From a virus (taxonomy: Duplodnaviria; Heunggongvirae; Uroviricota; Caudoviricetes): DNA of 18,533 bases. The stretch lies in the IMG/VR virus record IMGVR_UViG_2541047722_000018, positions 1 through 18,533 of that record, one strand, 5' to 3'. A program made the position numbers and the translations under genes. Below, one piece after another: positions 714 to 17,630 of the stretch. How positions within the stretch are numbered: position 1 is the stretch's first letter; every line of letters begins with the position of its first letter. The notes beneath the pieces are model-generated. The model did no database searches, had not been told where the DNA came from, and worked only from the letters and a program-made list of their open reading frames with translations.

Positions 714-716
714 CGC

Positions 717-998
717 ATGACAGCAGAAGAAAAAAGCGTCCTGTCGCTTTTCATGATTGGGGTGCTGATTGTTGTCGGCAAGGTGCTTGCCGGTGGTGAA
801 CCCATCACCCCGCGTCTGTTTATCGGGCGCATGTTGCTCGGTGGTTTTGTCTCGATGGTTGCCGGTGTTGTTCTGGTGCAGTTTCCTGACCTGTCACTGC
901 CTGCGGTGTGCGGCATCGGCTCCATGCTGGGTATCGCCGGTTATCAGGTGATTGAGATTGCCATTCAGCGCCGTTTTAAGGGCAGGGGGAAACCGTAA
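717..998 (+). CDS. Y: Holin (P2 gpY-like), 93 aa
   Basis: Small protein with hydrophobic transmembrane-like stretches (LFMIGVLIVVGKVLAGG; FVSMVAGVVLVQF), a charged C-terminus (RRFKGRGKP), immediately upstream of the endolysin. Confidence 0.8.
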   Translation: MTAEEKSVLSLFMIGVLIVVGKVLAGGEPITPRLFIGRMLLGGFVSMVAGVVLVQFPDLSLPAVCGIGSMLGIAGYQVIEIAIQRRFKGRGKP

Positions 999-1495: not shown

Positions 1496-1509
1496 ACGGA
1501 GTAAACACC

Positions 1510-1935: not shown

Positions 1936-2348
1936 TGACTGTGCTGGTTGTGTTGTTATCACTGGCGGTGGCCGGTCTGTTTCTGGTGAAGCATGAAAAC
2001 GCCAGCCTGCGCACCTCGCTGGACAGGGCGAACAGTGTCGCCAGCGGGCAGCAGACGACCATCACCATGCTGAAAAATCAGCTTCATGTTGCGCTCACCA
2101 GGGCAGACAAAAACGAGCTGGCGCAGGTTGCACTGCGTCAGGAGCTGGAGAACGCCGCGAAGCGTGAAGCACAGCGCGAGAAAACCATCACGAGGTTACT
2201 CAATGAAAACGAAGATTTTCGCCGCTGGTACGGTGCTGACCTGCCTGATGCTGTGCGCCGGTTGCACCAGCGCCCCGCCTGCACTGACGCCAGTGATTGT
2301 CCCCAACGCCTGCCCGAAAGTGAGTCTTTGCCCGATGCCGGGCAGTGA
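1923..2348 (+). CDS. lysB: Inner-membrane spanin LysB (Rz-like), 141 aa
   Basis: N-terminal transmembrane segment (LMTVLVVLLSLAVAGLFLV) followed by a charged, coiled-coil-like periplasmic region; overlaps the lysA end; P2 lysB size. Confidence 0.75.
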   Translation: MSKLMTVLVVLLSLAVAGLFLVKHENASLRTSLDRANSVASGQQTTITMLKNQLHVALTRADKNELAQVALRQELENAAKREAQREKTITRLLNENEDFRRWYGADLPDAVRRLHQRPACTDASDCPQRLPESESLPDAGQ

Positions 2349-2493
2349 CCCGCAGACGAACGGCGATTTAAGTGCCGATATCCGGCAGCTTGAGAACGCG
2401 CTGGCACGGTGTGCCAGCCAGATAAAAATGATTAAACACTGTCAGGACGAAAACGATGCTCAAACCCGACAGCCTGCGCAGGGCGCTGACTGA
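2203..2493 (+). CDS. lysC: Outer-membrane spanin LysC (Rz1-like lipoprotein), 96 aa
   Basis: ATG at 2203 inside the lysB 3' end in a different frame; signal peptide with lipobox (LMLCAG-C) and a proline-rich mature part; runs into the R start. Track ORF 2086..2493 over-extends upstream. Confidence 0.7.
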   Translation: MKTKIFAAGTVLTCLMLCAGCTSAPPALTPVIVPNACPKVSLCPMPGSDPQTNGDLSADIRQLENALARCASQIKMIKHCQDENDAQTRQPAQGAD

Positions 2494-2923
2494 TGCCGTC
2501 ACGGTGCTGAAAACTAACCCCGATATGCTGCGGATATTCGTGGATAACGGGAGTATTGCCTCCACACTGGCGACGTCGCTGTCATTCGAAAAGCGTTACA
2601 CGCTCAATGTCATTGTGACCGACTTTACCGGTGATTTTGACCTGCTCATCGTGCCGGTGCTGGCGTGGCTGCGGGAAAATCAGCCCGACATCATGACCAC
2701 CGACGAAGGCCAGAAAAAGGGCTTCACGTTTTATGCAGACATCAACAATGACAGCAGCTTTGATATCAGCATCAGTCTGATGCTGACCGAGCGCACGCTG
2801 GTCAGTGAGGTGGACGGCGCACTGCATGTGAAGAATATCCCGGAACCTCCGCCGCCGGAGCCGGTCACCCGCCCGGTGGAGTTGTATATCAATGGCGAAC
2901 TGGTGAGCAAGTGGGATGAATGA
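2456..2923 (+). CDS. R: Tail completion protein (P2 gpR-like), 155 aa
   Basis: Size and position as P2 R; overlaps the lysC end and the S start. Confidence 0.8.
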   Translation: MLKPDSLRRALTDAVTVLKTNPDMLRIFVDNGSIASTLATSLSFEKRYTLNVIVTDFTGDFDLLIVPVLAWLRENQPDIMTTDEGQKKGFTFYADINNDSSFDISISLMLTERTLVSEVDGALHVKNIPEPPPPEPVTRPVELYINGELVSKWDE

Positions 2924-3368
2924 GTTTAAGCGTTTTGAAGACCGGCTGACCGGGCTGATTGAATCGCTGTCACCGTCAGGGCGTCGGCGACTGAGTGCCG
3001 AACTGGCGAAACGTCTGCGTCAGAGTCAGCAACGTCGGGTGATGGCACAGAAAGCCCCGGACGGCACACCCTATGCGCCACGCCAGCAGCAGAGCGCCAG
3101 AAAAAAGACCGGTCGTGTTAAGCGAAAAATGTTTGCGAAACTTATCACCAGTCGCTTTTTGCATATCCGCGCCAGCCCGGAACAGGCATCAATGGAGTTT
3201 TACGGCGGAAAGTCACCGAAAATCGCCAGTGTGCATCAGTTCGGTCTGTCGGAAGAAACCCGGAAAGACGGTAAGAAAATTGATTATCCGGCGCGTCCTC
3301 TGCTCGGCTTTACCGGTGAGGATGTGCAGATGATTGAAGAGATTATCCTGGCTCACCTTGACCGTTAG
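2916..3368 (+). CDS. S: Tail completion protein (P2 gpS-like), 150 aa
   Basis: Size and position as P2 S; start ATG overlaps the R stop (ATGAATGA). Confidence 0.8.
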   Translation: MNEFKRFEDRLTGLIESLSPSGRRRLSAELAKRLRQSQQRRVMAQKAPDGTPYAPRQQQSARKKTGRVKRKMFAKLITSRFLHIRASPEQASMEFYGGKSPKIASVHQFGLSEETRKDGKKIDYPARPLLGFTGEDVQMIEEIILAHLDR

Positions 3369-3434
3369 TTGTGCCATTCCCGACACCTCATCGTCACATT
3401 GCCGCCGGTATGACCCGGCGGCATCCTTCCCGTT

Positions 3435-4070
3435 ATGAACACTCTCGCAAATATTCAGGAACTCGCGCGCGCACTGCGCAACATGATTCGCACCGGCGTT
3501 ATCGTCGAAACCGACCTTAACGCCGGTCGCTGCCGTGTGCAGACCGGCGGCATGTGCACCGACTGGCTTCAGTGGCTGACCCATCGCGCCGGGCGTTCGC
3601 GCACATGGTGGGCACCTTCCGTGGGGGAACAGGTGCTGATTCTGGCCGTGGGCGGTGAACTTGACACGGCGTTTGTTCTGCCGGGGATTTATTCCGGTGA
3701 TAACCCCGCGCCGTCTGCGTCGGCGGATGCCCTGCATATCCGTTTCCCTGACGGGGCGGTGATTGAGTATGAACCCGAAACCAGTGCACTCACGGTAAGC
3801 GGAATTAAAACGGCCAGCGTGACGGCTTCTGATTCTGTTACCGCCACGGTGCCGGTGGTCATGGTGAAAGCGTCAACCCGCGTCACCCTGGACACACCGG
3901 AGGTGGTCTGCACCAACAGGCTGATTACTGGCACGCTGGAAGTACAGAAGGGCGGGACGATGCGCGGCAACATTGAACACACCGGTGGTGAACTCTCATC
4001 AAACGGTAAGGTACTGCATACCCATAAACACCCCGGCGACAGCGGCGGCACAACCGGGGGACCTCTATGA
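3435..4070 (+). CDS. V: Baseplate spike/assembly protein (P2 gpV-like), 211 aa
   Basis: First gene after a 66-bp gap, consistent with the start of the V-W-J-I-H-G late operon; size matches P2 gpV. Confidence 0.85.
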   Translation: MNTLANIQELARALRNMIRTGVIVETDLNAGRCRVQTGGMCTDWLQWLTHRAGRSRTWWAPSVGEQVLILAVGGELDTAFVLPGIYSGDNPAPSASADALHIRFPDGAVIEYEPETSALTVSGIKTASVTASDSVTATVPVVMVKASTRVTLDTPEVVCTNRLITGTLEVQKGGTMRGNIEHTGGELSSNGKVLHTHKHPGDSGGTTGGPL

Positions 4071-4414
4071 CTGCGCGTTATCTCGGAATGAATCGCAGTG
4101 ATGGCCTGACTGTCACTGACCTTGAGCATATCAGCCAGAGTATCGGCGATATCCTGCGCACGCCGGTCGGCTCACGGGTGATGCGTCGTGATTACGGTTC
4201 GTTGCTGGCGTCAATGATTGACCAGCCGCAGACCCCGGCGCTTGAGTTGCAGATTAAGGTCGCCTGTTACATGGCGGTGCTGAAATGGGAACCCCGCGTC
4301 ACCCTGTCATCCGTCACCACGGCGCGCAGTTTTGACGGGCGAATGACGGTCACGTTAACCGGTCAGCACAACGACACCGGCCAGCCACTTTCGTTAACCA
4401 TCCCTGTGAGTTGA
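4067..4414 (+). CDS. W: Baseplate wedge protein (P2 gpW-like, T4 gp25 family), 115 aa
   Basis: Overlaps the V stop (ATGA); size and order as P2 W. Confidence 0.85.
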   Translation: MTARYLGMNRSDGLTVTDLEHISQSIGDILRTPVGSRVMRRDYGSLLASMIDQPQTPALELQIKVACYMAVLKWEPRVTLSSVTTARSFDGRMTVTLTGQHNDTGQPLSLTIPVS

Positions 4415-4418
4415 AACC

Positions 4419-5327
4419 ATGCCGATTATCGACCTGAACCAGCTACCCGCACCGGATGTGGTTGAGGAGCTGGACTTTGAAACCATTCTTGCCGAACGCA
4501 AGGCGACACTGATTTCCCTTTACCCGGAAGACCAGCAGGAGGCGGTCGCCCGTACCCTGACGCTGGAATCCGAGCCTCTCGTCAAACTGCTGGAGGAAAA
4601 TGCTTATCGTGAGCTTATCTGGCGTCAGCGTGTGAATGAGGCCGCACGGGCGGTAATGCTGGCCAGTGCCGCCGGTAATGACCTTGATGTGATTGGTGCC
4701 AATTACAATACCACGCGCCTGATTATCACCCCGGCAGATGATTCGACCATCCCGCCGACACCGGCAGTAATGGAATCTGACACTGATTATCGTCTGCGTA
4801 TTCAGCAGGCGTTTGAAGGTTTAAGCGTCGCCGGGTCGGTGGGTGCCTATCAGTATCATGGCCGCAGTGCCGACGGGCGTGTCGCGGATATCTCTGTCAC
4901 CAGTCCGTCTCCGGCCTGTGTCACCATCTCTGTGCTGTCACGTGAAAATAACGGTGTCGCATCCGAAGACCTGCTGGCCGTGGTGCGTAACGCCCTTAAT
5001 GGTGAGGACGTCAGGCCGGTGGCTGACCGTGTGACCGTGCAGTCTGCCGCCATTGTTGAATACCAGATAAACGCCACGCTTTACCTTTACCCTGGTCCCG
5101 AAAGCGAACCCATCCGCGCGGCCGCCGTGAAAAAGCTGGAAGCGTACATCACGGCACAGCACCGGCTGGGGCGCGACATCCGTCTGTCTGCCATTTATGC
5201 CGCTTTGCATGTGGAAGGCGTGCAGCGTGTCGAGCTGGCGGCACCACTGGCCGACATCGTGCTCAACAGTACGCAGGCGTCTTTCTGTACCGAATACCGC
5301 GTCGTGACCGGAGGCTCGGATGAGTGA
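4419..5327 (+). CDS. J: Baseplate protein (P2 gpJ-like), 302 aa
   Basis: Size and order as P2 J. Confidence 0.85.
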   Translation: MPIIDLNQLPAPDVVEELDFETILAERKATLISLYPEDQQEAVARTLTLESEPLVKLLEENAYRELIWRQRVNEAARAVMLASAAGNDLDVIGANYNTTRLIITPADDSTIPPTPAVMESDTDYRLRIQQAFEGLSVAGSVGAYQYHGRSADGRVADISVTSPSPACVTISVLSRENNGVASEDLLAVVRNALNGEDVRPVADRVTVQSAAIVEYQINATLYLYPGPESEPIRAAAVKKLEAYITAQHRLGRDIRLSAIYAALHVEGVQRVELAAPLADIVLNSTQASFCTEYRVVTGGSDE

Positions 5328-5850
5328 TTCGCGACTGCTGCCGACCGGCTCATCACCGCTTGAAGTCGCCGCTGCAAAAGCCTGTGCGGAAATTGAAAAA
5401 ACGCCGGTCAGTATTCGTGAGCTGTGGAACCTGGACACCTGCCCGGCAAATCTGCTGCCGTGGCTGGCGTGGGCGTTTTCGGTCGACAGATGGGATGAAA
5501 AGTGGCCGGAAGCGACCAAACGCGCCGTTATACGCGATGCCTATTTCATCCACTGTCATAAAGGCACTATAGGTGCAATCCGGCGTGTGGTGGAGCCGCT
5601 GGGCTATCTCATCAACGTGACGGAGTGGTGGGAAACCAGTGACCCGCCCGGCACCTTCCGGCTTGATATTGGTGTACTGGAAAGCGGTATCACAGAGGCA
5701 ATGTATCAGGAAATGGAACGGCTGATTGCTGATGCCAAACCTGCAAGCCGTCACCTTATTGGCCTGAACATTATCCAGGACATTCCCGGCTGTCTGTATA
5801 CAGGCGGTGTGGTCTGTGATGGTGATGTTATTACTGTTTATCCCGGATAA
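5320..5850 (+). CDS. I: Baseplate/tail protein (P2 gpI-like), 176 aa
   Basis: Overlaps the J end by 8 nt; size and order as P2 I. Confidence 0.8.
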   Translation: MSDSRLLPTGSSPLEVAAAKACAEIEKTPVSIRELWNLDTCPANLLPWLAWAFSVDRWDEKWPEATKRAVIRDAYFIHCHKGTIGAIRRVVEPLGYLINVTEWWETSDPPGTFRLDIGVLESGITEAMYQEMERLIADAKPASRHLIGLNIIQDIPGCLYTGGVVCDGDVITVYPG

Positions 5851-5860
5851 GTGAGAAACA

Positions 5861-8647
5861 ATGAGCACGAAATTTAAAACCGTTATCACTACTGCCGGAG
5901 CCGCAAAGCTGGCAGCCGCCACTGTCCCCGGCGGGAAAAAAGTAAACCTGTCTGCAATGGCCGTGGGTGACGGTAATGGCAAATTGCCGGTGCCGGATGC
6001 CGGTCAGACGAAACTGGTGCATGAGGTCTGGCGTCACGCTCTGAATAAAGTCAGCGTGGATAACAAGAATAAAAACTATATCGTGGCTGAACTGGTTGTA
6101 CCGCCAGAAGTGGGCGGCTTCTGGATGCGTGAACTTGGTCTGTATGACGATGCCGGAACACTGATTGCGGTATCCAACATGGCAGAAAGCTATAAGCCAG
6201 AACTGGCTGAAGGCTCCGGACGTGCGCAGACCTGCCGCATGGTTATTATTCTCAGCAACGTGGCGTCCGTTGAGCTGAGTATTGATGCCAGCACGGTGAT
6301 GGCGACGCAGGATTACGTCGATGACAAAATCGCAGAGCATGAGCAGTCCCGCCGCCATCCTGACGCCACGCTGACAGAAAAAGGTTTTACTCAGTTAAGC
6401 AGTGCAACAAACAGCACCAGTGAAAAGCTGGCAGCAACGCCAAAGGCAGTAAAAGCAGCCTATGACAATGCTGAAAAACGTATGCAGAAAGACCAGAACG
6501 GTGGCGATATTCCAGATAAGGGCGCTTTTCTGGACAATGTTGGCGTTACCAGCCTGACGTTTATGAAAAACAATGGCGAAATGCCGCTTGATGCTGATCT
6601 GAATACATTTGGTCCCGTTAAGGCTTATCTGGGGATCTGGTCTAAAGCTACCTCAACTAACGCAACACTGGAGAAAAATTTTCCGGAAGATAATGCTGTC
6701 GGTGTGCTTGAGGTTTTTGCTGCCGGCAATTTTGCAGGTACGCAACGCTTCACCACGAGAGACGGCAATGTATACATACGCAGACTCGCCAATAAGTGGA
6801 ATGGCTCTGATGGTCCGTGGGGCATATGGCGTCACACTCAATCAGCTACCCGCCCTTTGAGTACGACTATAGACCTGAATACGCTTGGAGCCGCCGAACA
6901 TCTTGGTTTATGGCGTAACAGTAGCTCGGCTATAGCTTCATATGAACGCAATTATCCAGAGGAAGGCGGCTTTGCTCAGGGGATGCTTGAGATCCTCGAA
7001 GGCGGGAATTATGGAAGAACGCAACGTTATACCACTCGCCGTGGAAATATGTATGTCCGCTGCCTTGCGGCAAGCTGGGATGTATCAAATCCGCAGTGGG
7101 AACCGTGGTTAAGAGTCGGTCATCAGTCAGAGAGTCGTTATTACGAAGGTGATTTAAATGTTCTAACCGACCCCGGTATTTACAGTGTTACAGGAAAGGC
7201 AACAAACGGTCCGATGCTGGACACCGTTGGCGCGACACTACTTGGGATACTGGAAGTAATCAGACGTTTTGATGGTGTGTCTGTCTGGCAGCGTTACACA
7301 ACCACAGGGAAATCAGAAACCACACAGGGACGCACTTTTGAGCGCGTCTACGCCGGGAGCAAATGGACCGAATGGCGAGAAGTATATAACTCCTTTTCGT
7401 TGCCTCTGAATCTGGGCATCGGTGGCGCAGTGGCAAAACTATCCAGTCTGGACTGGCAGACCTACGATTTTGTGCCGGGCAGTCTGATAACCGTGCGGCT
7501 TGATAACATGACCAACATTCCCGACGGTATGGACTGGGGCGTCATTGATGGCAACCTGATAAACATCGCAGTTGGTCCGAGTGATGATTCCGGTACGGGA
7601 CGCTCAATGCATGTATGGCGAAGCACTGTAAGTAAAGCCAACTACCGCTTTTTTATGGTGCGCGTTTCAGGAAATCCGGGAAGCCGCACGATTACAACAA
7701 GACGAGTACCAATCATTGACGAAGCCCAGACATGGGGCGCGAAACAGACATTCAGTGCTGGCCTTTCTGGTGAACTGTTCGGCAATGCTGCGACAGCAAC
7801 AAAGCTGAAAACAGCCCGTAAAATTAATAACGTTTCGTTTGATGGAACATCAGATATTAACCTGACGCCTGAAGATATTGGTGCATTGCCAATAACGGGA
7901 GGAACTCTTACCGGCGGTTTAACTGCTGCTGGCGAGATTATTTCCAAATCGGCGAATGGTCTTCGTATTGCCTATGGCAACTATGGATTCTTTATCCGAA
8001 ACGATGGTTCAAGCACATACCTCATGTTGACCAATTCGGGCGACAGCCTGGGAACATGGAATAGTTTAAGGCCGCTTACCATTAATAACGCCAGTGGAGC
8101 TGTTTCTATCGGTAATAGTTTAACTGTTAATGGTGATATAGGAACCAATGCTTGGGTATATGCAAATCGTTTTGCAATTAATAGCAGTACCGGAATGTGG
8201 ATAAATATGCGTGACCAGAATGTTATTTTTGGACGTAATGCGGTATCCACCGATGGTGCTCAGGCATTGTTACGTCAGGACCATGCTGATCGCAAATTTA
8301 TGATTGGTGGTCTGGGGAATAAGCAATTTGGCATCTACATGATTAATAATTCAAGGACAGCCAATGGCACCGATGGTCAGGCGTACATGGATAATAACGG
8401 GAATTGGCTTTGCGGTGCGCAAGTTATTCCCGGCAATTATGGTAATTTTGACTCACGCTATGTGAGAGATGTCAGACTTGGCACACGTGTTGTTCAGACC
8501 ATGCAAAAAGGCGTGATGTATGAAAAATCAGGTCATGTAATCACGGGGCTTGGTATTGTCGGTGAAGTCGATGGTGATGACCCCGCAGTATTCAGACCAA
8601 TACAAAAATACATCAATGGCACATGGTATAACGTCGCACAGGTGTAA
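5861..8647 (+). CDS. H: Tail fibre protein (P2 gpH-like N-terminus, divergent repeat-containing distal region), 928 aa
   Basis: N-terminus MSTKFKTVITTAGAAKLAAA... is the conserved P2-type fibre anchor. It is longer than the 669 aa I recall for P2 H. It has three tandem ~92-aa repeats, a GGTLTGGL motif common in enterobacterial phage fibres, and a visibly more AT-rich distal part. Confidence 0.85.
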   Translation: MSTKFKTVITTAGAAKLAAATVPGGKKVNLSAMAVGDGNGKLPVPDAGQTKLVHEVWRHALNKVSVDNKNKNYIVAELVVPPEVGGFWMRELGLYDDAGTLIAVSNMAESYKPELAEGSGRAQTCRMVIILSNVASVELSIDASTVMATQDYVDDKIAEHEQSRRHPDATLTEKGFTQLSSATNSTSEKLAATPKAVKAAYDNAEKRMQKDQNGGDIPDKGAFLDNVGVTSLTFMKNNGEMPLDADLNTFGPVKAYLGIWSKATSTNATLEKNFPEDNAVGVLEVFAAGNFAGTQRFTTRDGNVYIRRLANKWNGSDGPWGIWRHTQSATRPLSTTIDLNTLGAAEHLGLWRNSSSAIASYERNYPEEGGFAQGMLEILEGGNYGRTQRYTTRRGNMYVRCLAASWDVSNPQWEPWLRVGHQSESRYYEGDLNVLTDPGIYSVTGKATNGPMLDTVGATLLGILEVIRRFDGVSVWQRYTTTGKSETTQGRTFERVYAGSKWTEWREVYNSFSLPLNLGIGGAVAKLSSLDWQTYDFVPGSLITVRLDNMTNIPDGMDWGVIDGNLINIAVGPSDDSGTGRSMHVWRSTVSKANYRFFMVRVSGNPGSRTITTRRVPIIDEAQTWGAKQTFSAGLSGELFGNAATATKLKTARKINNVSFDGTSDINLTPEDIGALPITGGTLTGGLTAAGEIISKSANGLRIAYGNYGFFIRNDGSSTYLMLTNSGDSLGTWNSLRPLTINNASGAVSIGNSLTVNGDIGTNAWVYANRFAINSSTGMWINMRDQNVIFGRNAVSTDGAQALLRQDHADRKFMIGGLGNKQFGIYMINNSRTANGTDGQAYMDNNGNWLCGAQVIPGNYGNFDSRYVRDVRLGTRVVQTMQKGVMYEKSGHVITGLGIVGEVDGDDPAVFRPIQKYINGTWYNVAQV
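6599..7385 (+). repeat. Three tandem ~92-aa (276-279 nt) protein-level repeats inside tail fibre H
   Basis: Repeat units start at 6599, 6875 and 7154, each beginning with an LNT/LNV motif and sharing an ...L(E)VxxxGN(F/Y)xxTQR(F/Y)TTRxGNxYxRxLAxxW... core. Confidence 0.6.
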
Positions 8648-8650
8648 TTT

Positions 8651-9178
8651 ATGCAGCATTTAAAAAATATTACTGCGGGTAATCCAAAAACTGTTGCCCA
8701 ATATCAACTGACAAAAAATTTTGATGTTATCTGGTTATGGTCCGAAGAGGGAAAAAACTGGTATGAGGAAGTAAGTAATTTTCAGGAAGACACGATAAAG
8801 ATTGTTTACGACGAGAATAATATAATTGTCGGCATCACCAGAGATGCTTCAACGCTCAACCCTGAAGGTTTTAGCGTTGTCGAGGTTCCTGATATTACCG
8901 CCAACCGACGTGCTGATGACTCAGGTAAATGGATGTTTAAGGATGGTGCCGTGATTAAGCGGATTTATACGGCAGACGAACAGCAACAACAGGCAGAATC
9001 ACAAAAGGCCGCGTTACTTTCCGAAACCGAATCCGTGATTTTGCCGCTGGAGCGCGCTGTCAGGCTGAATATGGCAACAGATGAGGAGCGCAGTCGACTG
9101 GAAGCATGGGAACGCTACAGCGTTCTGGTCAGTCGTGTGGATCCTGCAAATCCTGAATGGCCGGAAATGCCGCAATAA
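8651..9178 (+). CDS. G: Tail fibre assembly protein / chaperone (P2 gpG, Tfa family), 175 aa
   Basis: Directly after H; size as P2 G; AT-rich like the distal part of H; ends ...[12 protein letters not shown]. Confidence 0.8.
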
Positions 9179-9331
9179 GTTGTATGAGCTCTGGTGGGAG
9201 CTTACATATCTATGGCACAGAGTAAAGCCTAATCTGACAGTCCGCTCTGTGCTAGGAGCGGACATTGTTGCCATCTATCTGCATAAATCTGTGGGGAGCT
9301 GCTCACTTGTGGGGAATGAGTCCTCAACTGT

Positions 9332-9360
9332 TTGCGTTTATAAACACAATCCTTTAGATT
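9332..9360 (+). promoter_or_regulatory. Candidate sigma70 promoter for the cargo ORF
   Basis: TTGCGT (9332-9337), 17-nt spacer, TAGATT (9355-9360), about 30 nt upstream of the cargo start; each hexamer matches consensus at 4/6 only. Confidence 0.3.
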
Positions 9361-9390
9361 CTCTCCTACTATCTACTAAAATTTTATCTA

Positions 9391-10518
9391 GTGAAAATGC
9401 CCAATAATCATATGTATGCAAGTCTACTGTCTTACAAAAACTTAAAGATGGCACATCAAGGAAGTAACTTACGGTCTATTACTGAGTTTTCTCTCTATTC
9501 AGATAGTCAACCAATTGGGGCGGTTGATGATGATTCAGTTTATTGTTTTCTGAATATGTTACCCAGGATAACCAAACAATCCACCGTTGCATCTTCAATT
9601 ACAGTGCGCACAAAGTGGTATAGTGACTTAAATAATATGATTCTTTCTAGTTCTCAGAGTCATACAAAGGATTATCATGGTGGATGGTATAATGATGAAA
9701 TAGCTGCGCTTTCAAGTTTACTGCTTGGTGTCCGTTTTCATGCTGGGTCAATTACTCGTCACTATGATTACTACACAGGTGATTTCGGAAGGATCCAAGC
9801 GGAGAGTTCTTTTCCTCCCGTTTTAGAGTTTAAACATAACAAACCTATAGTTCCTAATGCTATCAAAGAAATTGATATAACTAACCTTAAAGAGCTTAAC
9901 AATTTACATCTCTTAAGTGAAAAGAATTTCAACCATTTAATTAGAGCAGCCAGAAGCTATCAAAATGCATTATGGATATGCGAGTCATCTCCAAATATGA
10001 GTTGGCTATTGATGGTGTCAGCCCTAGAATGTGCGGCTAATCAATGGGCAAAATCCAATGCGTCTAAAGAAGAAAGATTTAAACATGCCAAGCCTGAATT
10101 ATATGAAAAATTAGATACCAATGAATTTAGACATTTAATCTCTATTATTGCTAATGAGTTTAAAGATTCATTTGGGGCGACAAAGAAGTTTGTGGATTTC
10201 TGCCTGTATTTCCTTCCAGATGAACCTCAAGTGAGGCCAAAAGTAGGAAGAATTGATTGGGGAAAAGAATCGCTATCAACAACTTTTAAAAAAATATATA
10301 ACTACCGTTCTAAGGCATTGCATGGAGGACAACCATTTCCTGAGCCGATGTGTTCCTATCCTGAAGTATGGGATGGGTATATTGCTGAACGAGCGAGAGC
10401 ATGTTCAACCTTAGGTGGAACGTGGTTGAATGAAGATGTGCCAATTAATTTAAATACATTCAACTTTATGACCCATTCCATTTTGAATAAGTGGTGGCAA
10501 TCTTTATTACCAAGTTAA
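9391..10518 (+). CDS. Hypothetical protein, cargo gene at the G/FI variable locus; candidate anti-phage defence protein (possible C-terminal HEPN-like R-x4-H motif), up to 375 aa
   Basis: Single long ORF in an AT-rich island: hand count 20/60 G+C at its 5' end versus 33/60 at the start of FI. Start uncertain (GTG 9391, ATG 9397 or downstream ATGs; no strong SD). No transmembrane segments or P-loop seen. Occupies the P2 Z/fun position. Confidence 0.6.
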   Translation: MKMPNNHMYASLLSYKNLKMAHQGSNLRSITEFSLYSDSQPIGAVDDDSVYCFLNMLPRITKQSTVASSITVRTKWYSDLNNMILSSSQSHTKDYHGGWYNDEIAALSSLLLGVRFHAGSITRHYDYYTGDFGRIQAESSFPPVLEFKHNKPIVPNAIKEIDITNLKELNNLHLLSEKNFNHLIRAARSYQNALWICESSPNMSWLLMVSALECAANQWAKSNASKEERFKHAKPELYEKLDTNEFRHLISIIANEFKDSFGATKKFVDFCLYFLPDEPQVRPKVGRIDWGKESLSTTFKKIYNYRSKALHGGQPFPEPMCSYPEVWDGYIAERARACSTLGGTWLNEDVPINLNTFNFMTHSILNKWWQSLLPS

Positions 10519-10540
10519 CACTGTAAGTATCAGTGTTAAC
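10514..10540. repeat. Perfect 10-bp inverted repeat overlapping the cargo stop codon
   Basis: GTTAACACTG (10514-10523), 7-nt spacer, CAGTGTTAAC (10531-10540). Confidence 0.6.
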
Positions 10541-10609
10541 TGCACCATGTAATTTTATATCTGTACCAGACTGGAGGAAAATGTTCGCTTATCGCTCATT
10601 AGGGTCAAC

Positions 10610-10648
10610 CATACTCAAATCTCTCACATTGCAGGAGATTTGAGTATG
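10610..10648. repeat. Perfect 14-bp inverted repeat with 11-nt spacer
   Basis: CATACTCAAATCTC (10610-10623), spacer tcacattgcag, GAGATTTGAGTATG (10635-10648). Confidence 0.6.
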
Positions 10649-10671
10649 AACACGTCACCGTGGAAGGACTG

Positions 10672-10694
10672 GCGGGCGAATTGCCCGCTTTTTT
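10672..10694 (+). terminator. Rho-independent terminator downstream of the cargo ORF
   Basis: GCGGGC-gaatt-GCCCGC stem-loop followed by TTTTTT on the + strand. Confidence 0.6.
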
Positions 10695-10792
10695 GTATCT
10701 GTTGTTTCATCCACTGACCAGCCAGGTCAAATAGCGTCTCATGCTCTGCACAACAGAAAATAGTTGCACCCATTAACCACGGAGTTAAACGG

Positions 10793-11983
10793 ATGAGTGA
10801 CTATCATCACGGCGTGCAGGTGCTGGAGATTAACGACGGCACCCGCGTCATTTCCACCGTATCCACCGCCATTGTTGGCATGGTCTGCACGGCCAGCGAT
10901 GCGGATGCGGAAACCTTCCCCGTCAATAAACCGGTGCTGATCACCAATGTGCAGAGCGCGATTGCAAAGGCCGGTAAAAAAGGTACGCTGGCGGCATCGT
11001 TGCAGGCCATCGCTGACCAGTCAAAACCGGTCACCGTTGTCGTGCGCGTGGAAGACGGCACCGGCGACGACGAAGAAACGAAACTCGCGCAGACCGTTTC
11101 CAATATCATCGGCACCACTGACGAAAACGGTCAGTACACCGGACTGAAAGCCCTGATGGGCGCAGAGTCGGTTACCGGCGTTAAACCGCGCATTCTCGGC
11201 GTACCGGGACTGGACACCAAAGAGGTGGCGGTTGCACTGGCATCGGTATGCCAGGAACTGAATGCCTTCGGGTATATCAGCGCATGGGGCTGTAAAACCA
11301 TTTCCGAGGCAAAAGCCTACCGTCAGAATTTCAGTCAGCGTGAGCTGATGGTCATCTGGCCGGATTTCCTTGCATGGGATACGGTCACCAGTACCACCGC
11401 CACCGCGTATGCCACCGCCCGTGCGCTGGGGCTGCGTGCCAAAATCGACCAGGAGCAGGGCTGGCATAAAACGCTGTCCAACGTCGGGGTAAACGGTGTT
11501 ACCGGCATCAGCGCATCTGTATTCTGGGATTTGCAGAAGTCTGGCACTGATGCTGACCTGCTGAACGAGGCAGGCGTCACAACGCTGGTTCGCCGCGACG
11601 GTTTCCGTTTCTGGGGTAACCGTACCTGCTCCGATGACCCACTTTTCCTCTTTGAAAGCTACACACGTACCGCGCAGGTACTGGCCGACACGATGGCTGA
11701 GGCGCACATGTGGGCTATTGATAAGCCCATCACCGCAACGCTGATTCGCGACATCATTGATGGCATCAATGCCAAATTCCGCGAACTGAAAAACAACGGT
11801 TATATCGTGGATGGCACATGCTGGTTCAGTGAAGAAGCCAACGATGCGGAAACCCTCAAGGCCGGAAAACTGTATATCGACTACGACTATACACCGGTGC
11901 CTCCTCTCGAAAACCTGACCCTGCGCCAGCGTATTACTTCAAGATACCTGGCAAGTCTGGTCACCTCGGTTAACAGCAATTAA
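10793..11983 (+). CDS. FI: Contractile tail sheath protein (P2 gpFI-like), 396 aa
   Basis: GGAG RBS before the ATG; size and order as P2 FI; first gene of the FI-FII-E-T-U-D operon. Confidence 0.9.
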   Translation: MSDYHHGVQVLEINDGTRVISTVSTAIVGMVCTASDADAETFPVNKPVLITNVQSAIAKAGKKGTLAASLQAIADQSKPVTVVVRVEDGTGDDEETKLAQTVSNIIGTTDENGQYTGLKALMGAESVTGVKPRILGVPGLDTKEVAVALASVCQELNAFGYISAWGCKTISEAKAYRQNFSQRELMVIWPDFLAWDTVTSTTATAYATARALGLRAKIDQEQGWHKTLSNVGVNGVTGISASVFWDLQKSGTDADLLNEAGVTTLVRRDGFRFWGNRTCSDDPLFLFESYTRTAQVLADTMAEAHMWAIDKPITATLIRDIIDGINAKFRELKNNGYIVDGTCWFSEEANDAETLKAGKLYIDYDYTPVPPLENLTLRQRITSRYLASLVTSVNSN

Positions 11984-11995
11984 GGAGCCTGACCG

Positions 11996-12514
11996 ATGGC
12001 AATGCCGCGCAAACTCAAGTTAATGAACGTCTTTCTGAACGGCTACAGCTATCAGGGCGTTGCAAAGTCCGTCACGCTGCCAAAACTGACCCGTAAGCTC
12101 GAAAACTATCGCGGTGCGGGGATGAACGGCAGCGCACCGGTAGACCTCGGCCTTGATGACGATGCGCTGTCAATGGAGTGGTCGCTCGGTGGCTTCCCGG
12201 ATTCGGTTATCTGGGAGCTTTACGCCGCAACCGGTGTGGATGCCGTGCCGATTCGTTTTGCAGGCTCTTACCAGCGCGACGATACCGGCGAAACGGTGGC
12301 CGTCGAAGTGGTCATGCGTGGACGTCAGAAAGAAATCGACACCGGCGAGGGTAAACAGGGAGAAGACACCGAGTCGAAAATCTCCGTGGTCTGCACCTAT
12401 TTCCGGCTGACGATGGACGGTAAGGAGCTGGTCGAAATCGACACCATCAACATGATTGAGAAGGTGAACGGCGTCGACCGGCTGGAGCAACACCGCCGCA
12501 ATATCGGCCTGTGA
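11996..12514 (+). CDS. FII: Tail tube protein (P2 gpFII-like), 172 aa
   Basis: AGGAG RBS; size and order as P2 FII. Confidence 0.9.
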   Translation: MAMPRKLKLMNVFLNGYSYQGVAKSVTLPKLTRKLENYRGAGMNGSAPVDLGLDDDALSMEWSLGGFPDSVIWELYAATGVDAVPIRFAGSYQRDDTGETVAVEVVMRGRQKEIDTGEGKQGEDTESKISVVCTYFRLTMDGKELVEIDTINMIEKVNGVDRLEQHRRNIGL

Positions 12515-12570
12515 TTTTCATCCGGTCAGCCTGGCTGACCGGTTAACCCCGATTCAGAAGTGAGAAAACC

Positions 12571-12846
12571 ATGAACAAAGAAAATGTGATTACCCTGGAC
12601 AATCCGGTCAAGCGTGGTGAGCAGGTTATCGAACAGGTCACGCTGATGAAACCCAATGCCGGGACGCTGCGCGGTGTCAGTCTGGCTGCGGTCGCAAACT
12701 CCGAAGTCGATGCACTGATTAAGGTGCTGCCGCGCATGACGGCACCGATGCTGACCGAGCAGGAGGTCGCCGCGCTGGAACTGCCTGACCTTGTGGCGCT
12801 GGCCGGTAAGGTGGTCGGTTTTTTGTCTCCGAACTCGGTGCAGTGA
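12571..12846 (+). CDS. E: Tail assembly chaperone E (P2 gpE-like), 91 aa
   Basis: Size and position as P2 E; contains the slippery site T-TTT-TTG near its 3' end. Confidence 0.8.
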   Translation: MNKENVITLDNPVKRGEQVIEQVTLMKPNAGTLRGVSLAAVANSEVDALIKVLPRMTAPMLTEQEVAALELPDLVALAGKVVGFLSPNSVQ

Positions 12847-12998
12847 CGTTTCCGAAAAATCTGTCGGTCGATGACCTGATGGCAGATGTGGCAGTGATAT
12901 TTCACTGGCCGCCATCAGAACTGTATCCCATGAGCCTGACCGAACTCATCACATGGCGCGAAAAGGCGCTCCGGCGAAGCGGAAACACGAATGAGTAA
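12571..12998 (+). CDS. E+E': Tail assembly chaperone fusion E+E' made by a programmed -1 translational frameshift
   Basis: Slippery heptamer T TTT TTG at 12819-12825; after a -1 slip the frame stays open (..VSELGAVTFPKNL...RRSGNTNE) to TAA at 12996-12998, overlapping the T start codon. Analogous to the P2 E/E' and lambda G/GT arrangement. Confidence 0.65.
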
Positions 12999-15438
12999 CA
13001 ATGTAAAATTACAGGTATTGCTCAGGGCTGTTGACCAGGCATCCCGCCCGTTTAAATCCATCCGCACAGCGAGTAAGTCGCTGTCGGGGGATATCCGGGA
13101 AACACAAAAATCACTGCGCGAGCTGAACGGTCACGCATCCCGTATTGAGGGATTCCGCAAGACCAGTGCACAGCTCGCCGTGACTGGTCATGCACTTGAA
13201 AAGGCACGGCAGGAAGCCGAAGCCCTTGCCACACAGTTTAAAAACACCGAACGTCCGACCCGTGCTCAGGCGAAAGTGCTGGAATCCGCAAAGCGTGCGG
13301 CGGAGGACTTACAGGCGAAATATAACCACCTGACGGATTCCGTTAAACGCCAGCAACGGGAACTGGCCGTTGTGGGAATTAATACCCGCAATCTTGCACA
13401 TGATGAGCAGGGACTGAAAAACCGTATCAGTGAAACCACCGCACAACTTAACCGTCAGCGTGACGCGCTGGCGCGTGTCAGTACGCAACAGGCAAAACTT
13501 AACGCAGTAAAACAGCGTTATCAGGCCGGAAAGGAACTGGCCGGAAATATGGCCTCGGTAGGCGCTGCCGGTGTGGGGATTGCGGCGGCGGGAACGATGG
13601 CCGGAGTTAAGCTGCTGATGCCCGGTTATGAGTTTGCGCAGAAAAACTCAGAATTGCAGGCCGTGCTAGGAGTGGCAAAAGACTCCGCCGAAATGGCCGC
13701 GCTACGCAAACAGGCGCGCCAGCTCGGCGACAACACAGCCGCCTCGGCGGATGATGCAGCAGCAGCTCAAATCATCGTGGCTAAATCAGGAGCGGATAAA
13801 AATGGCATCTTGGCACAAACACCGGCCATTTTGAATATGTCACTGGCAAACAAGAAAACGATGGAGGAAAACGCCACTTTACTTATTGGGACAAAATCGG
13901 CATTCGGGCTTGCTGATGATAAGGCTTCCCATATTGCTGATGTTATTTCAATGACGATGAATAAATCGCAAGCCACATTCGAGGGACTAAGTGATTCACT
14001 TACCTATGTCGGGCCAGTGGCAAAAGATGCAGGTGTCAGCTTGGAAGAAACAGCAGCAATGTTAGGTGCATTACACGATGCAAATATCAGTGGGTCTATG
14101 GCTGGCACAGGAAGTCGAGCAGTACTGAGTCGTTTGCAGGCACCAACCGGGAAAGCGTATGACGCTATTAAAGAGCTTGGCGTAAAGACAACTGACAGCA
14201 AAGGTAATACGCGACCTGTCTTTTCAATTCTGAAAGAAATTCAGCGGAGTTTTGAAAAAAATAAACTAGGAACAGGGCAGCGCGCTGAATACATGAAAAC
14301 AATATTCGGCGAAGAGGCCAGCTCATCAGCAAGTGTATTAATGACAGCAGCAGCCAGCGGCAAGCTGGATAATCTGACCAGGTTGATTAAAGAATCTGAC
14401 GGTAAAACAGAAGAACTGGTTAAGGTTATGCAGGACAACCTCGGCGGTGACTTTAAGGAGTTTCAGTCCGCTTATGAGGCGGTGGGGACTGACCTGTTTG
14501 ACCAGCAGGAAGGCGCACTGCGTAAGCTCACGCAGACGGCCACAAATTATGTGTTAAAACTCGACGGCTGGATCCAGAAAAACAAATCACTGGCGTCAAC
14601 CATCGGCATCATTGCCGGTGGCGCGCTGGCGCTGACTGGCATCATCGGTGCCATTGGTCTTGTCGCCTGGCCGGTTATCACCGGCATCAATGCCATCATC
14701 GCGGCAGCAGGCGCAATGGGGGCAATCTTCACGACGGTTGGCAGTGCCGTTATGACGGCCATCGGGGCGATTAGCTGGCCGGTTGTGGCCGTGGTGGCCG
14801 CCATTGTCGCCGGGGCGTTGCTTATCCGTAAATACTGGGAGCCTGTCAGCGCATTCTTTGGCGGTGTGGTTGAAGGGCTTAAAGCGGCATTTGCGCCGGT
14901 GGGGGAACTGTTCACGCCACTTAAACCGGTTTTTGACTGGCTGGGGGAAAAGTTACAGGCCGCGTGGCAGTGGTTTAAAAATCTGATTGCCCCGGTCAAA
15001 GCCACCCAGGACACCCTGAACCGTTGCCGTGACACGGGGGTCATGTTCGGGCAGGCACTGGCTGACGCGCTGATGCTGCCGCTTAATGCGTTCAACAAAC
15101 TGCGCAGCGGCATTGACTGGGTACTGGAAAAACTCGGTGTTATCAACAAAGAGTCAGACACACTTGACCAGACCGCCGCCAGAACTCAAGCCGCCACGTA
15201 TGGCAGCGGTGGTTATATTCCGGCGACCAGCTCTTATGCAGGCTATCAGGCTTATCAGCCGGTCACGGCACCGGCTGGCCGCTCTTATGTAGACCAGAGT
15301 AAAAACGAATATCACATCAGCCTGACGGGTGGTACTGCGCCGGGGACACAGCTTGACCGCCAGTTACAGGATGCGCTCGAAAAATACGAGCGGGATAAAC
15401 GTGCGCGCGCCCGTGCCAGCATGATGCATGACGGTTAA
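12991..15438 (+). CDS. T: Tail tape measure protein (P2 gpT-like), 815 aa
   Basis: Large alpha-helical protein with a central Gly/Ala-rich hydrophobic segment; size and order as P2 T. Confidence 0.85.
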   Translation: MSNNVKLQVLLRAVDQASRPFKSIRTASKSLSGDIRETQKSLRELNGHASRIEGFRKTSAQLAVTGHALEKARQEAEALATQFKNTERPTRAQAKVLESAKRAAEDLQAKYNHLTDSVKRQQRELAVVGINTRNLAHDEQGLKNRISETTAQLNRQRDALARVSTQQAKLNAVKQRYQAGKELAGNMASVGAAGVGIAAAGTMAGVKLLMPGYEFAQKNSELQAVLGVAKDSAEMAALRKQARQLGDNTAASADDAAAAQIIVAKSGADKNGILAQTPAILNMSLANKKTMEENATLLIGTKSAFGLADDKASHIADVISMTMNKSQATFEGLSDSLTYVGPVAKDAGVSLEETAAMLGALHDANISGSMAGTGSRAVLSRLQAPTGKAYDAIKELGVKTTDSKGNTRPVFSILKEIQRSFEKNKLGTGQRAEYMKTIFGEEASSSASVLMTAAASGKLDNLTRLIKESDGKTEELVKVMQDNLGGDFKEFQSAYEAVGTDLFDQQEGALRKLTQTATNYVLKLDGWIQKNKSLASTIGIIAGGALALTGIIGAIGLVAWPVITGINAIIAAAGAMGAIFTTVGSAVMTAIGAISWPVVAVVAAIVAGALLIRKYWEPVSAFFGGVVEGLKAAFAPVGELFTPLKPVFDWLGEKLQAAWQWFKNLIAPVKATQDTLNRCRDTGVMFGQALADALMLPLNAFNKLRSGIDWVLEKLGVINKESDTLDQTAARTQAATYGSGGYIPATSSYAGYQAYQPVTAPAGRSYVDQSKNEYHISLTGGTAPGTQLDRQLQDALEKYERDKRARARASMMHDG

Positions 15439-15452
15439 GGAGGTGACGAAAA

Positions 15453-15932
15453 ATGATGCTCGCGTTAGGTATGTTTGTTTTTATGCGCCAGACGCTGCCA
15501 CACCAGACCATGCAGCGTGAATCAGATTATCGCTGGCCGTCAAATTCCCGTATCGGCAAACGGGATGCCTTTCAATTTCTCGGTGTGGGTGAGGAAAACA
15601 TCACGCTTGCCGGTGTGCTTTATCCCGAACTGACCGGCGGAAAGCTGACGATGACCACGCTCAGGCTGATGGCAGAGGAAGGCCGGGCGTGGCCGTTGCT
15701 GGATGGCACCGGCATGATTTATGGCATGTATGTCATCAGTAAGGTGAGTGAAACAGGGAGTATTTTCTTTGCAGACGGCACACCCCGGAAAATTGATTTT
15801 ACGCTGTCGCTCACCCGCGTTGATGAATCACTGGCCGCGCTTTATGGCGATATCGGTAAACAGGCGGAATCGCTCATCGGTAAGGCTGGCAGTATAGCGA
15901 CTAAATTCACGGGTATGACGGAGGCGGGATAA
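15453..15932 (+). CDS. U: Tail protein (P2 gpU-like), 159 aa
   Basis: AGGAGG RBS; size and order as P2 U. Confidence 0.85.
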   Translation: MMLALGMFVFMRQTLPHQTMQRESDYRWPSNSRIGKRDAFQFLGVGEENITLAGVLYPELTGGKLTMTTLRLMAEEGRAWPLLDGTGMIYGMYVISKVSETGSIFFADGTPRKIDFTLSLTRVDESLAALYGDIGKQAESLIGKAGSIATKFTGMTEAG

Positions 15933-17095
15933 TGCTGGATGCGCTGACATTTGATGCAGGCAGTACGCTGACGCCGGATTACATGCTGATGCTCGACAGC
16001 AGGGATATTACCGGCAATATCAGCGACCGTCTGATGAGCATGACCCTGACGGATAACCGGGGCTTTGAGGCTGACCAGCTTGATATTGAACTGAACGATG
16101 CCGACGGGCAGGTCGGACTGCCGGTTCGTGGCGCTGTCCTGACGGTGTATATCGGCTGGAAAGGTTTTGCCCTGGTATGCAAAGGGAAATTTACCGTTGA
16201 TGAGGTTGAACACCGGGGCGCACCGGATGTGGTCACCATCCGCGCCCGGAGTGCAGATTTTCGCGGGACGCTCAATTCCCGCCGTGAAGGCTCCTGGCAT
16301 GACACCACGCTCGGTGCGATTGTTGAGGCGATAGCCTCCCGTAACAGGCTGGAAGCCAGTGTCGCGCCGTCACTGGCAGGAATTAAAATCCCGCACATCG
16401 ACCAGTCGCAGGAGTCTGATGCGAAATTCCTGACCCGTCTTGCAGAACGCAACGGCGGTGAGGTGTCGGTAAAAATGGGAAAACTGTTGTTTCTCAAAGC
16501 GGGGCAGGGGGTGACGTCCAGCGGTAAAAAAATCCCGCAGATTACCATCACCCGCAGCGACGGCGACCGTCATCATTTTGCGATTGCTGACCGTGGAGCC
16601 TATACCGGCGTAACGGCAAAGTGGTTACACACCAAAGACCCGAAGCCGCAAAAGCAGAAGGTAAAACTGAAACGCAAAAAGAAAGAGAAACACCTGCGCG
16701 CACTGGAGCACCCGAAAGCGAAACCAGTCACGCAGAAGAAAGCGCCAAAAGTACCGGAAGCGCGCGAAGGTGAATACATGGCCGGTGAGGTTGATAACGT
16801 TTTTGCCCTGACCACGGTATATGCCACGAAAGCACAGGCCATGCGTGCCGCTCAGGCGAAGTGGGATAAGCTGCAACGGGGTGTAGCGGAGTTCTCCATC
16901 AGCCTGGCTACTGGTCGGGCAGATATTTACACGGAAACACCGGTTAAAGTGTCAGGCTTTAAGCGCGTCATAGACGAGCAGGACTGGACAATCACTAAGG
17001 TGACACATTTTCTGAATAATAGCGGCTTCACGACGTCCTTAGAGCTTGAGGTCAGGCTTTCTGATGTGGAGCACGAAACAGAAGATGATGAGTGA
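15932..17095 (+). CDS. D: Tail protein (P2 gpD-like), 387 aa
   Basis: Start overlaps the U stop (TAATG); size and order as P2 D; contains a Lys-rich low-complexity linker. Confidence 0.85.
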   Translation: MLDALTFDAGSTLTPDYMLMLDSRDITGNISDRLMSMTLTDNRGFEADQLDIELNDADGQVGLPVRGAVLTVYIGWKGFALVCKGKFTVDEVEHRGAPDVVTIRARSADFRGTLNSRREGSWHDTTLGAIVEAIASRNRLEASVAPSLAGIKIPHIDQSQESDAKFLTRLAERNGGEVSVKMGKLLFLKAGQGVTSSGKKIPQITITRSDGDRHHFAIADRGAYTGVTAKWLHTKDPKPQKQKVKLKRKKKEKHLRALEHPKAKPVTQKKAPKVPEAREGEYMAGEVDNVFALTTVYATKAQAMRAAQAKWDKLQRGVAEFSISLATGRADIYTETPVKVSGFKRVIDEQDWTITKVTHFLNNSGFTTSLELEVRLSDVEHETEDDE

Positions 17096-17176
17096 TGTAA
17101 TTTATTTATCTGTTTGTTTTATAAGGATAAATTAACTAAAATGGCACCATCAACAAAACCGGAAGAGGTGCTCGCG

Positions 17177-17395
17177 ATGTTTCATTGTCCTTTATGCCAG
17201 CATGCCGCACATGCGCGTACAAGCCGCTATATCACTGACACGACAAAAGAGCGTTATCACCAGTGTCAGAACGTGAATTGCAGCGCCACATTCATCACTT
17301 ATGAGTCGGTACAGCGATACATCGTGAAGCCGGGAGAAGTCCACGCCGTAAGACCGCACCCGTTGCCGTCAGGGCAGCAAATTATGTGGATGTGA
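17177..17395 (+). CDS. ogr: Late-gene transcriptional activator Ogr (zinc-finger, 72 aa)
   Basis: MFHCPLCQHAAHARTSRYITDTTKERYHQCQNVNCSATF... matches my recollection of P2 Ogr, with a C-x2-C...C-x4-C zinc-binding pattern. ATG at 17177 has an AGAGG RBS; the track ORF from 17114 is an over-extension. Confidence 0.9.
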   Translation: MFHCPLCQHAAHARTSRYITDTTKERYHQCQNVNCSATFITYESVQRYIVKPGEVHAVRPHPLPSGQQIMWM

Positions 17396-17405
17396 TCACA
17401 AAAAT

Positions 17406-17430
17406 AGCCCCTCAGTCGAGGGGCTTATTT
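17406..17430. terminator. Stem-loop terminator after ogr (possibly bidirectional)
   Basis: AGCCCCTC-agtc-GAGGGGCT with T-rich tracts on both sides. Confidence 0.55.
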
Positions 17431-17521
17431 ATGGTCGATGTGGACGCTATGTGGACAGTGGTTGACATAAATCCATTTATATCATCAGGTTAGGTGCTTT
17501 TTTGTGACACCATCCCTGTCT
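17431..17521. other. Probable attR region of the prophage (integrase arm-type direct repeats plus core); exact core not determinable from this window
   Basis: Lies between the last phage gene (ogr) and host sequence. ATGTGGAC occurs twice (17438-17445 and 17449-17456) with 11-bp periodicity. Confidence 0.35.
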
Positions 17522-17548
17522 TCCCCCACATGATGTGGGGGTTTTTTT
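17522..17548 (+). terminator. Rho-independent terminator, probably the host cpxP (CpxQ 3'-UTR sRNA) terminator
   Basis: CCCCCAC-atgat-GTGGGGG followed by eight T; located just upstream of fieF, where cpxP sits in E. coli. Confidence 0.6.
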
Positions 17549-17630
17549 TATCCTCAATTTGCCTGCTGCTTAATGCATTGCAGATGATTTGCTTCCGTTA
17601 TACTACCGTCAGTTGATAGCGGGAGTATTT

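Follow-up and report, generated by a model that had tools for sequence, protein, structure and literature searches.

What is the low-GC gene that sits between two tail genes of a P2-like prophage, and what might it do there? The DNA in question is a stretch of 18,533 nucleotides (positions 1 to 18,533 of IMG/VR virus record IMGVR_UViG_2541047722_000018, hereafter the window) and belongs to a P2-like (Peduovirus) prophage, of which it represents the late region. In it, the 1,614-bp interval between the tail-fibre assembly gene G and the tail sheath gene FI contains one long open reading frame (ORF; 9391-10518, +), for which an earlier note, made from the DNA letters alone, had proposed a previously undescribed defence or abortive-infection system. 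We conclude that the product of this cargo gene is probably a self-contained abortive-infection RNase, and would put the probability of this at about 0.6. A role in defence or abortive infection is the best reading of its fold, its conserved motif and the genomic neighbourhoods of its homologues, and ‘defence system’ is to be taken as an inferred role.

A predicted HEPN endoribonuclease

The mechanical ORF starts at GTG 9391 and would encode the 375 aa reported in the earlier note; the ORF itself is confirmed, but GenBank starts the identical gene of Yersinia phage vB_YpM_22 at ATG 9397, and with this corrected start the cargo gene (9397-10518, +) encodes 373 aa. The ratio of non-synonymous to synonymous substitution (dN/dS) between the phage copy and an Enterobacter copy is 0.09, and the gene is real, constrained and under purifying selection.

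An AlphaFold model computed from a 40-sequence alignment of the family (alignment A1) reaches a pLDDT (predicted local distance difference test) score of 93 and a predicted template-modelling (pTM) score of 0.92, and divides the protein into two domains. The N-terminal domain (approximately aa 1-160; 9397-9876, +) is of mixed beta/alpha composition and rich in beta structure, has no relative among solved structures and carries its own set of invariant polar residues; we propose that it is a sensor or regulator. The C-terminal domain (approximately aa 161-373; 9877-10515, +) is HEPN-like in the model, with helices H1 (175-194), H2 (199-221), H3 (290-310) and H4 (352-370) and an insert (224-271) between H2 and H3.

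HEPN domains are defined by a four-helix core, usually with an insert between H2 and H3, and by an Rx4-6H motif at the end of helix 3 (Anantharaman et al., 2013; PMC3710099), and a conserved acidic or polar residue of helix 2 near this motif is part of their catalytic signature (PMC3710099). The window protein has the four-helix core with its H2-H3 insert, and at the C-terminal end of H3 it carries the motif R304-S-K-A-L-H309 (10306-10323, +), which is predicted to be catalytic. Residues R304, S305, L308 and H309 are invariant in the 40 diverse members of A1. We read this R-x4-H as the HEPN RNase catalytic signature because of its position at the end of H3, because H2 contains an invariant glutamate (E211), and because the motif is kept in 255 of 256 full-length family members. 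The C-terminal half is accordingly described here as a predicted HEPN-type metal-independent endoribonuclease with R304 and H309 as its predicted catalytic residues, whose action E211 of helix 2 probably assists.

The earlier note saw no recognisable signature in this protein other than R-x4-H, and suggested structure and profile searches as a check. As far as profile hidden Markov model (HMM) searches go this description is accurate, as neither the protein, nor its C-terminal half, nor 40 or more of its relatives matched Pfam, PADLOC v2, NCBIfam or PHROGs; nor did sequence searches of the PDB with the single protein and with a profile, or a Foldseek search of the PDB with the AlphaFold model, return a match. 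The protein is not featureless, however, as the model reveals the HEPN-like domain predicted for its C-terminal half. UniRef names the exact sequence ‘Apea-like HEPN domain-containing protein’.

A single HEPN protein is an established form of abortive-infection tRNase, as in ApeA, DARNA (bioRxiv 2026.02.22.705581), HepS (PMC13043305) and HEC-08 (bioRxiv 2024.01.29.577857), and these precedents suggest how the window protein might act. In a lysogen, the prophage would make the protein, which would be kept inactive by autoinhibition until infection by another phage yields a cue. This cue might be sensed by the N-terminal domain, or by an interdomain pocket like that of ApeA, whereupon the HEPN domains would pair to build a composite active site. 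The enzyme would then attack the RNA of the host, with tRNA anticodon loops as the likeliest target if ApeA, DARNA and HepS are a guide; its cuts would stop translation and so abort the infection. A more ambitious proposal, to which we give somewhat less than even odds, is that the family consists of single-protein immune sensors and constitutes a new named defence system, in which the N-terminal module detects a cue other than those of ApeA, HepS or DARNA and switches on the HEPN RNase, and which travels as a cassette between chromosomes and P2-like phages.

A widespread family without a conserved partner gene

The family is large. A word-indexed search found at least 200 homologues, nearly all of them full-length, and a profile search of 1.84 billion representatives returned 1,756 clusters (at 50% identity) at E ≤1e-3 and 833 at 1e-30; among the 150 best clusters listed, lengths are almost all 360-420 aa. 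Genomes scanned for the family place it in Enterobacterales, Cyanobacteria, Acidobacteriota, Planctomycetes, Chloroflexota, Actinobacteria, Deinococcales, Latescibacterota and Methanophagales (ANME) archaea, a patchy spread that is typical of horizontally mobile genes. One homologue is annotated differently: that of Pectobacterium versatile (L011 9788-11119; P0021) appears as a 443-aa ‘RelE/ParE family toxin’, with a weak match to ParE_toxin (E 1.3e-3) over the initial ~60 residues, and it is either a fusion with an upstream toxin fragment or the result of a wrong start call.

To describe the company that these genes keep, two ORFs on each side of the homologue were collected from ~40 diverse genomes, which gave 150 proteins. 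None of the families among these neighbours recurs more than four times, so that no partner gene is conserved. The families that do recur are of defence or toxin–antitoxin type (ResIII, PhdYeFM, SMC_N, Uma2, nSTAND3, PIN, AAA_21, SNF2, PLDc_2, BrxL and AIPR). In Latescibacterota the homologue adjoins a methylase and a PLD-SNF2 helicase, in Kosakonia it lies in a transposase/integrase island, and in Klebsiella it stands at a prophage edge. A Raoultella homologue (55% identity; L076 7359-8429) is, like the gene studied here, cargo of a P2-like prophage and follows a tail-fibre gene. It is itself followed on the opposite strand by a gene for a 356-aa protein with a PIN_12 domain, between the tail-fibre and the tail-tube/tape-measure modules; this PIN_12 gene has no PADLOC match, and may be a second defence candidate.

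These neighbourhoods bear on the alternative that survives best, namely that the gene is a selfish addiction or toxin module, in which a HEPN RNase toxin stabilizes the mobile element by means of an unrecognised antitoxin or of self-regulation and gives no protection from phages. A type II toxin–antitoxin pair has a conserved adjacent antitoxin gene, and none is found among the 150 flanking ORFs, while in the window the cargo gene stands alone. An RNA antitoxin finds no better candidate, as the G-FI interval holds three hairpins and short repeats at chance level only, with no tandem repeats, and an Rfam scan of it gave no match. The large conserved N-terminal domain, moreover, suggests regulated sensing. 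It should be added that toxin–antitoxin and abortive-infection roles overlap in practice; taken as an account of its own, a pure addiction module appears unlikely to us.

Cargo of the P2 Z/fun hotspot

The earlier note described a low-GC single-gene insert between G and FI at the position of P2 Z/fun, in an established hotspot for anti-phage genes, and this description is borne out. The ORF list has a single long ORF between the two tail genes that Pfam identifies, and GC is 0.33-0.41 over the G-FI interval against 0.51-0.59 in FI (0.372 for the cargo segment and 0.539 for the remaining window). P2 and P2-EC67 hold their Z-region ORFs at the position of the cargo gene, which identifies the locus as the P2 Z/fun position. 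The fun locus is a second P2 defence hotspot, where three validated systems have been found in addition to fun (Vassallo 2022; PMC9519451), and the Z/fun site is among the two classical P2 hotspots (Egorov 2024; bioRxiv 2024.10.15.618418).

The content of this site is polymorphic, as the comparison of P2-like prophages suggested in the earlier note confirms. Only 5 of the 5,426 complete E. coli genomes contain the full interval, whereas 1,584 genomes have the flanks alone. The interval is further found in 8 phage records, of Yersinia pestis phages YpM_22, YpM_50, 476A, 476B and VB-YPM-18 and of coliphage vB_EcoM-720R8. Other prophages carry at the same site an SduA/Shedu nuclease (E 1e-219), a DUF4145 protein matching PD-T7-4, an HNH protein, hypothetical proteins, or nothing. 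The exact window protein was found in 202 blocks of an assembly collection, between G and FI in every place shown, and the exact cargo gene is combined there with no fewer than two different H/G tail-fibre modules (L082 and L083). By its location between G and FI and by its polymorphism in both presence and content, the island is a single-gene cargo (a ‘moron’) that a P2-like prophage holds in its Z/fun hotspot. It shares insertion site, orientation, single-gene layout and low GC with P2 Z/fun and the other G-FI cargo, but the proteins encoded there are unrelated to the window protein, and the Z-region ORFs of P2 and P2-EC67 have no PADLOC match.

It could be argued that a gene so placed serves the phage itself, either as a counter-defence HEPN-type nuclease that degrades cyclic-oligonucleotide signals or as an RNA-processing factor of the lytic cycle. 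The cargo gene is indeed co-oriented with the late tail operons between which it lies, and some HEPN enzymes are known to degrade cyclic oligoadenylate signals (DARNA preprint; bioRxiv 2026.02.22.705581). Most members of the family, however, are chromosomal genes of bacteria and archaea that reside in defence or mobile-element islands rather than in phages, and validated defence genes occupy the same hotspot. As the gene is missing from most P2-like phages, it is also dispensable for lytic growth, and we regard a phage-serving enzyme as improbable.

Weighing the HEPN assignment

Full-length Ec1ApeA and Ec2ApeA were recovered from E. coli genomes by means of the partial sequences in the supplement of the ApeA preprint, and allow a direct comparison with the window protein. 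With the PADLOC ApeA HMM, Ec1ApeA scores E 0 and Ec2ApeA E 1.3e-12, and the window protein has no match. The best local BLASTP match to ApeA (E 0.31) places ‘RIDW...IYNYRSKALHGG’ on ‘RINW...IYRTRNLIVHTG’, with R304/H309 on R502/H507. An hhalign comparison of A1 with an ApeA alignment covers 146 columns, corresponding to Ec2ApeA 327-511, which is the HEPN_ApeA region, and again places R304/H309 on the catalytic R502/H507, at an E-value of 0.11 that is not significant. In sequence terms, then, the resemblance to ApeA is suggestive, not significant.

This resemblance bears on a further alternative, that the protein is HEPN-like but not catalytic, acting as a nucleotide- or protein-binding regulator or as a lysogenic-conversion factor in which Rx4H has a structural or ligand-binding role. 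The R and the H are almost universally conserved at exact spacing and are accompanied by the invariant H2 glutamate, which is the signature described for HEPN enzymes (PMC3710099), and in the hhalign comparison the motif falls on the catalytic residues of ApeA; a protein without catalysis seems to us about as improbable as one in the service of the phage. The weakest alternative, a decaying remnant or chance ORF in AT-rich DNA, to which a weak ribosome-binding site and promoter might point, is effectively refuted by the low dN/dS, the uniform length of so many homologous clusters and the very confident AlphaFold model.

Several observations nonetheless weigh against an abortive-infection RNase. 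The HEPN fold is predicted, not solved, and the proximity of R304, H309 and E211 within it is putative. For 40 or more family members there is no Pfam match at E ≤10, and no profile of the curated HEPN clan links to them; the hhalign comparison with ApeA falls short of significance, as given above, and an hhalign comparison with an alignment of DUF4145, the cargo of another prophage at the hotspot, showed no relation. The genomic neighbours do speak for a defence role, as they match 234 PADLOC models (E ≤1e-10) against 91 for 150 control ORFs that lie more than 6 kb away in largely overlapping loci and are mostly housekeeping by Pfam; but this enrichment is rough, as it counts redundant PADLOC models and not proteins. 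Finally, the promoter call for the cargo gene is no better than chance, and its expression in lysogens is something that we infer.

Extent and origin of the foreign segment

Segment borders were set by blastn against P2 and the ‘Z-region’ record of P2-EC67. The conserved P2 left flank of the Z region (9179-9270) is 92-93% identical to P2 and P2-EC67 up to ~9268-9270, and the conserved right flank (10665-10792, +) is 97% identical to P2. Because backbone homology stops at ~9268-9270 and restarts at 10665, we take ~9271-10664, which has no blastn homology to P2 or P2-EC67, as the foreign cargo segment.

A chromosomal counterpart of this segment is found in Enterobacter hormaechei. An islet in the chromosome of this species shares 95.3% identity with window 9235-10590, and window 10586-10665 matches the same islet 1.3 kb further on (L071 8497-8576); the 1.3-kb stretch of the islet without a phage counterpart carries an AbiGi gene (PADLOC AbiGi, E 6e-48). 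This AbiGi-family gene (L071 7280-8068) is on the opposite strand, directly 3′ of a 97%-identical homologue of the cargo gene, and is precisely missing from the phage copy.

Two short sequences bound the cassette. On the right, 10586-10665 (+) is the scar of a truncated tyrosine-integrase gene, comprising the region upstream of the integrase and its first ~20 nt (ATG 10646); the scar is 92-95% identical to the E. hormaechei islet and to E. coli Nissle 1917 (L070 3001-3073), where 74 bp of it (window 10592-10665) likewise stand upstream of an integrase remnant, and it ends exactly where P2 backbone homology restarts. On the left, a 34-bp element (9229-9263, in the left flank) with a GTCCGCTC/GAGCGGAC hairpin (-18.4 kcal/mol, z -2.5) is common to the left flank of the P2 Z region, the Enterobacter islet and the Nissle islet. 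In P2 the element also occurs inverted on the far side of the cargo (L003 2720-2751), the two copies corresponding to the annotated inverted repeats of AJ512685, and the stretch 9179-9270 falls in the annotated ‘left inverted repeat’ of that record. Between these boundaries the Enterobacter cassette holds the cargo gene plus AbiGi, and the Nissle cassette holds HEC-08 (E 1e-173). The gene of the Nissle islet had been considered as a homologue of the window protein; it was rejected, being HEC-08 and without sequence similarity. The shared boundary sequences suggest that the cargo has passed as a cassette between the P2 Z region and an integrase-remnant islet, the latter being a defence hotspot in its own right.

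Signals in the interval

The earlier note had credited the island with a promoter-like element and a terminator of its own, and neither attribution is supported. The only convincing terminator of the interval, an intrinsic terminator (10671-10689, followed by T6; +), is sited in the conserved P2 right flank and is therefore not the island's own; the terminator (10671-10696) is a backbone feature that serves whichever cargo is present. Upstream of the gene, the sigma-70-like site TTTAGA-18-TAAAAT (9353-9382, +) is weak, matching the consensus at 9 of 12 positions, and promoter-like sites are no commoner than chance (5 found, 4.9 expected in shuffled sequence).

The palindrome TGTTTGCGTTTATAAACA (9329-9346, +) lies ~50 nt upstream of the weak -10 element (9377-9382). 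It fits TGT-N12-ACA, which is the form of the P2 Ogr-dependent late-promoter dyad, and is the single such site upstream of the cargo gene. The palindrome is not above chance, and the pattern is rarer in the window than chance would have it (2 found, 5 expected); TGTTTGCGTTTATAAACA is for this reason only a lead on late-phase or regulated expression, and TGT-N12-ACA as a sign of Ogr-dependent late expression was set aside and is not relied on. Palindrome and sigma-70-like site are a candidate operator and a candidate promoter only.

The structures that do belong to the island are two hairpins, one with an 11-bp stem over the stop codon (10513-10541, +; -14.3 kcal/mol, z -3.3) that lacks a canonical T run, and a perfect 14-bp hairpin inside the integrase scar (10610-10648, +).

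Flanking genes and other features of the window

The left border of the hotspot is gene G (8651-9178, +; tail-fibre assembly, Pfam Caudo_TAP, E 1.2e-34), preceded by the tail-fibre gene H (5861-8647; Pfam Phage_tail_fib), and the right border is the sheath gene FI (10793-11983, +; Pfam Phage_sheath_1, E 5e-33, with sheath_1C and Gp18_domIII_N). GC also dips to 0.39-0.45 at 8050-8950, in the 3′ end of H and the 5′ part of G, which is consistent with the swapping of receptor-binding modules. A further ORF (9081-9407, 108 aa) shares sequence with both the 3′ end of G and the start of the cargo gene. It matches no family and lies across the junction of backbone and cargo, and we therefore rejected it as a probably spurious call, although phage vB_EcoM-720R8 (ON470606) has a part of it annotated as ‘ubiquitin-conjugating enzyme H (fragment)’.

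P2-like phages appear to have a further cargo site. Ec2ApeA, a validated HEPN defence (L080 2605-4356, E. coli JNQH497), is carried by a P2-like prophage, with the baseplate gene V on one side and a gene for a ‘virion morphogenesis protein’ on the other, and at the counterpart of this junction in the window the ORFs 2916-3368 and 3435-4070, presumably P2 S and V by their position, are adjacent and hold no cargo between them.

Significance and comparison with known systems

Abortive infection by a single HEPN gene is well known, and a specialist would not be greatly surprised by another case. What is new is a combination of traits: the family is large and spans bacteria and archaea, neither Pfam nor PADLOC v2 has a model for it, its N-terminal domain is without structural relatives, and no experimental report on it was found with accessions in full texts or with peptide strings in the DefensePredictor and Vassallo 2022 supplements, a search that lay outside the subscription literature and the newest DefenseFinder models. 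ApeA, HepS and DARNA are the current models of one polypeptide that both senses infection and executes abortive infection, and sensor domain and trigger differ in each. Were the abortive-infection reading true, the family would bring a new sensing module into prokaryotic immunity, would close a gap in the tools that annotate defence genes, and would provide a concrete case of a defence cassette that moves between a chromosomal integrase-remnant islet and a phage hotspot by way of short shared boundaries. Should the gene give no protection, it would be one more uncharacterised HEPN gene on mobile elements.

Of the characterised proteins, ApeA (Gao et al., 2020; Juozapaitis et al., bioRxiv 2026.01.26.701840) invites the closest comparison. 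Both are encoded by a single gene and have a C-terminal HEPN domain that bears an insertion, and Ec2ApeA, like the window protein, is cargo of a P2 prophage. Their H1/H2 motifs look similar (LIRAAR...W..VSALE against FIRSVQ...LWIAIESL), as does the H3 motif W...IY.xR[SN]..[LV]H.G, in which the catalytic R and H are in register. ApeA differs in its length of ~580-600 aa and its three mainly helical domains (N-terminal helical, Mid and HEPN_ApeA), whereas the window protein has 373 aa and a beta-rich N-terminal domain. ApeA binds deoxydinucleotides as its ligand, assembles into a decamer and has tRNA targets.

HEC-08 (a DUF3644 HEPN protein; Payne et al., bioRxiv 2024.01.29.577857) gives defence by a single HEPN gene, as validated by experiment; the histidine of its Rx4-6H is essential, and in E. 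coli Nissle its cassette has the same 34-bp and 74-bp boundary sequences as the window cargo. It differs in having an N-terminal HEPN domain followed by zinc-ribbon-like domains, and has no sequence similarity to the window protein. The E. coli functional selection described in Vassallo 2022 yielded DARNA, or PD-T7-3 (bioRxiv 2026.02.22.705581), which is a single HEPN protein that cuts tRNA anticodon loops and so causes abortive infection, triggered by single-stranded DNA bound by the protein SSB. Its HEPN domain is N-terminal and is joined to a Pds5-like C-terminal domain, unlike that of the window protein, which the PADLOC PD-T7-3 models do not match. HepS of the Gifsy-1 prophage (PMC13043305) is likewise a prophage-encoded single HEPN protein that cuts tRNA anticodon loops and leads to abortive infection, its trigger being a tail-tip protein; it too differs in architecture from the window protein.

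The window protein matches neither the ApeA profile nor the ~580-aa architecture of ApeA, and belongs to no named system, HepS having been compared by description only. By analogy, however, it may well work as ApeA, HepS, HEC-08 and DARNA do.

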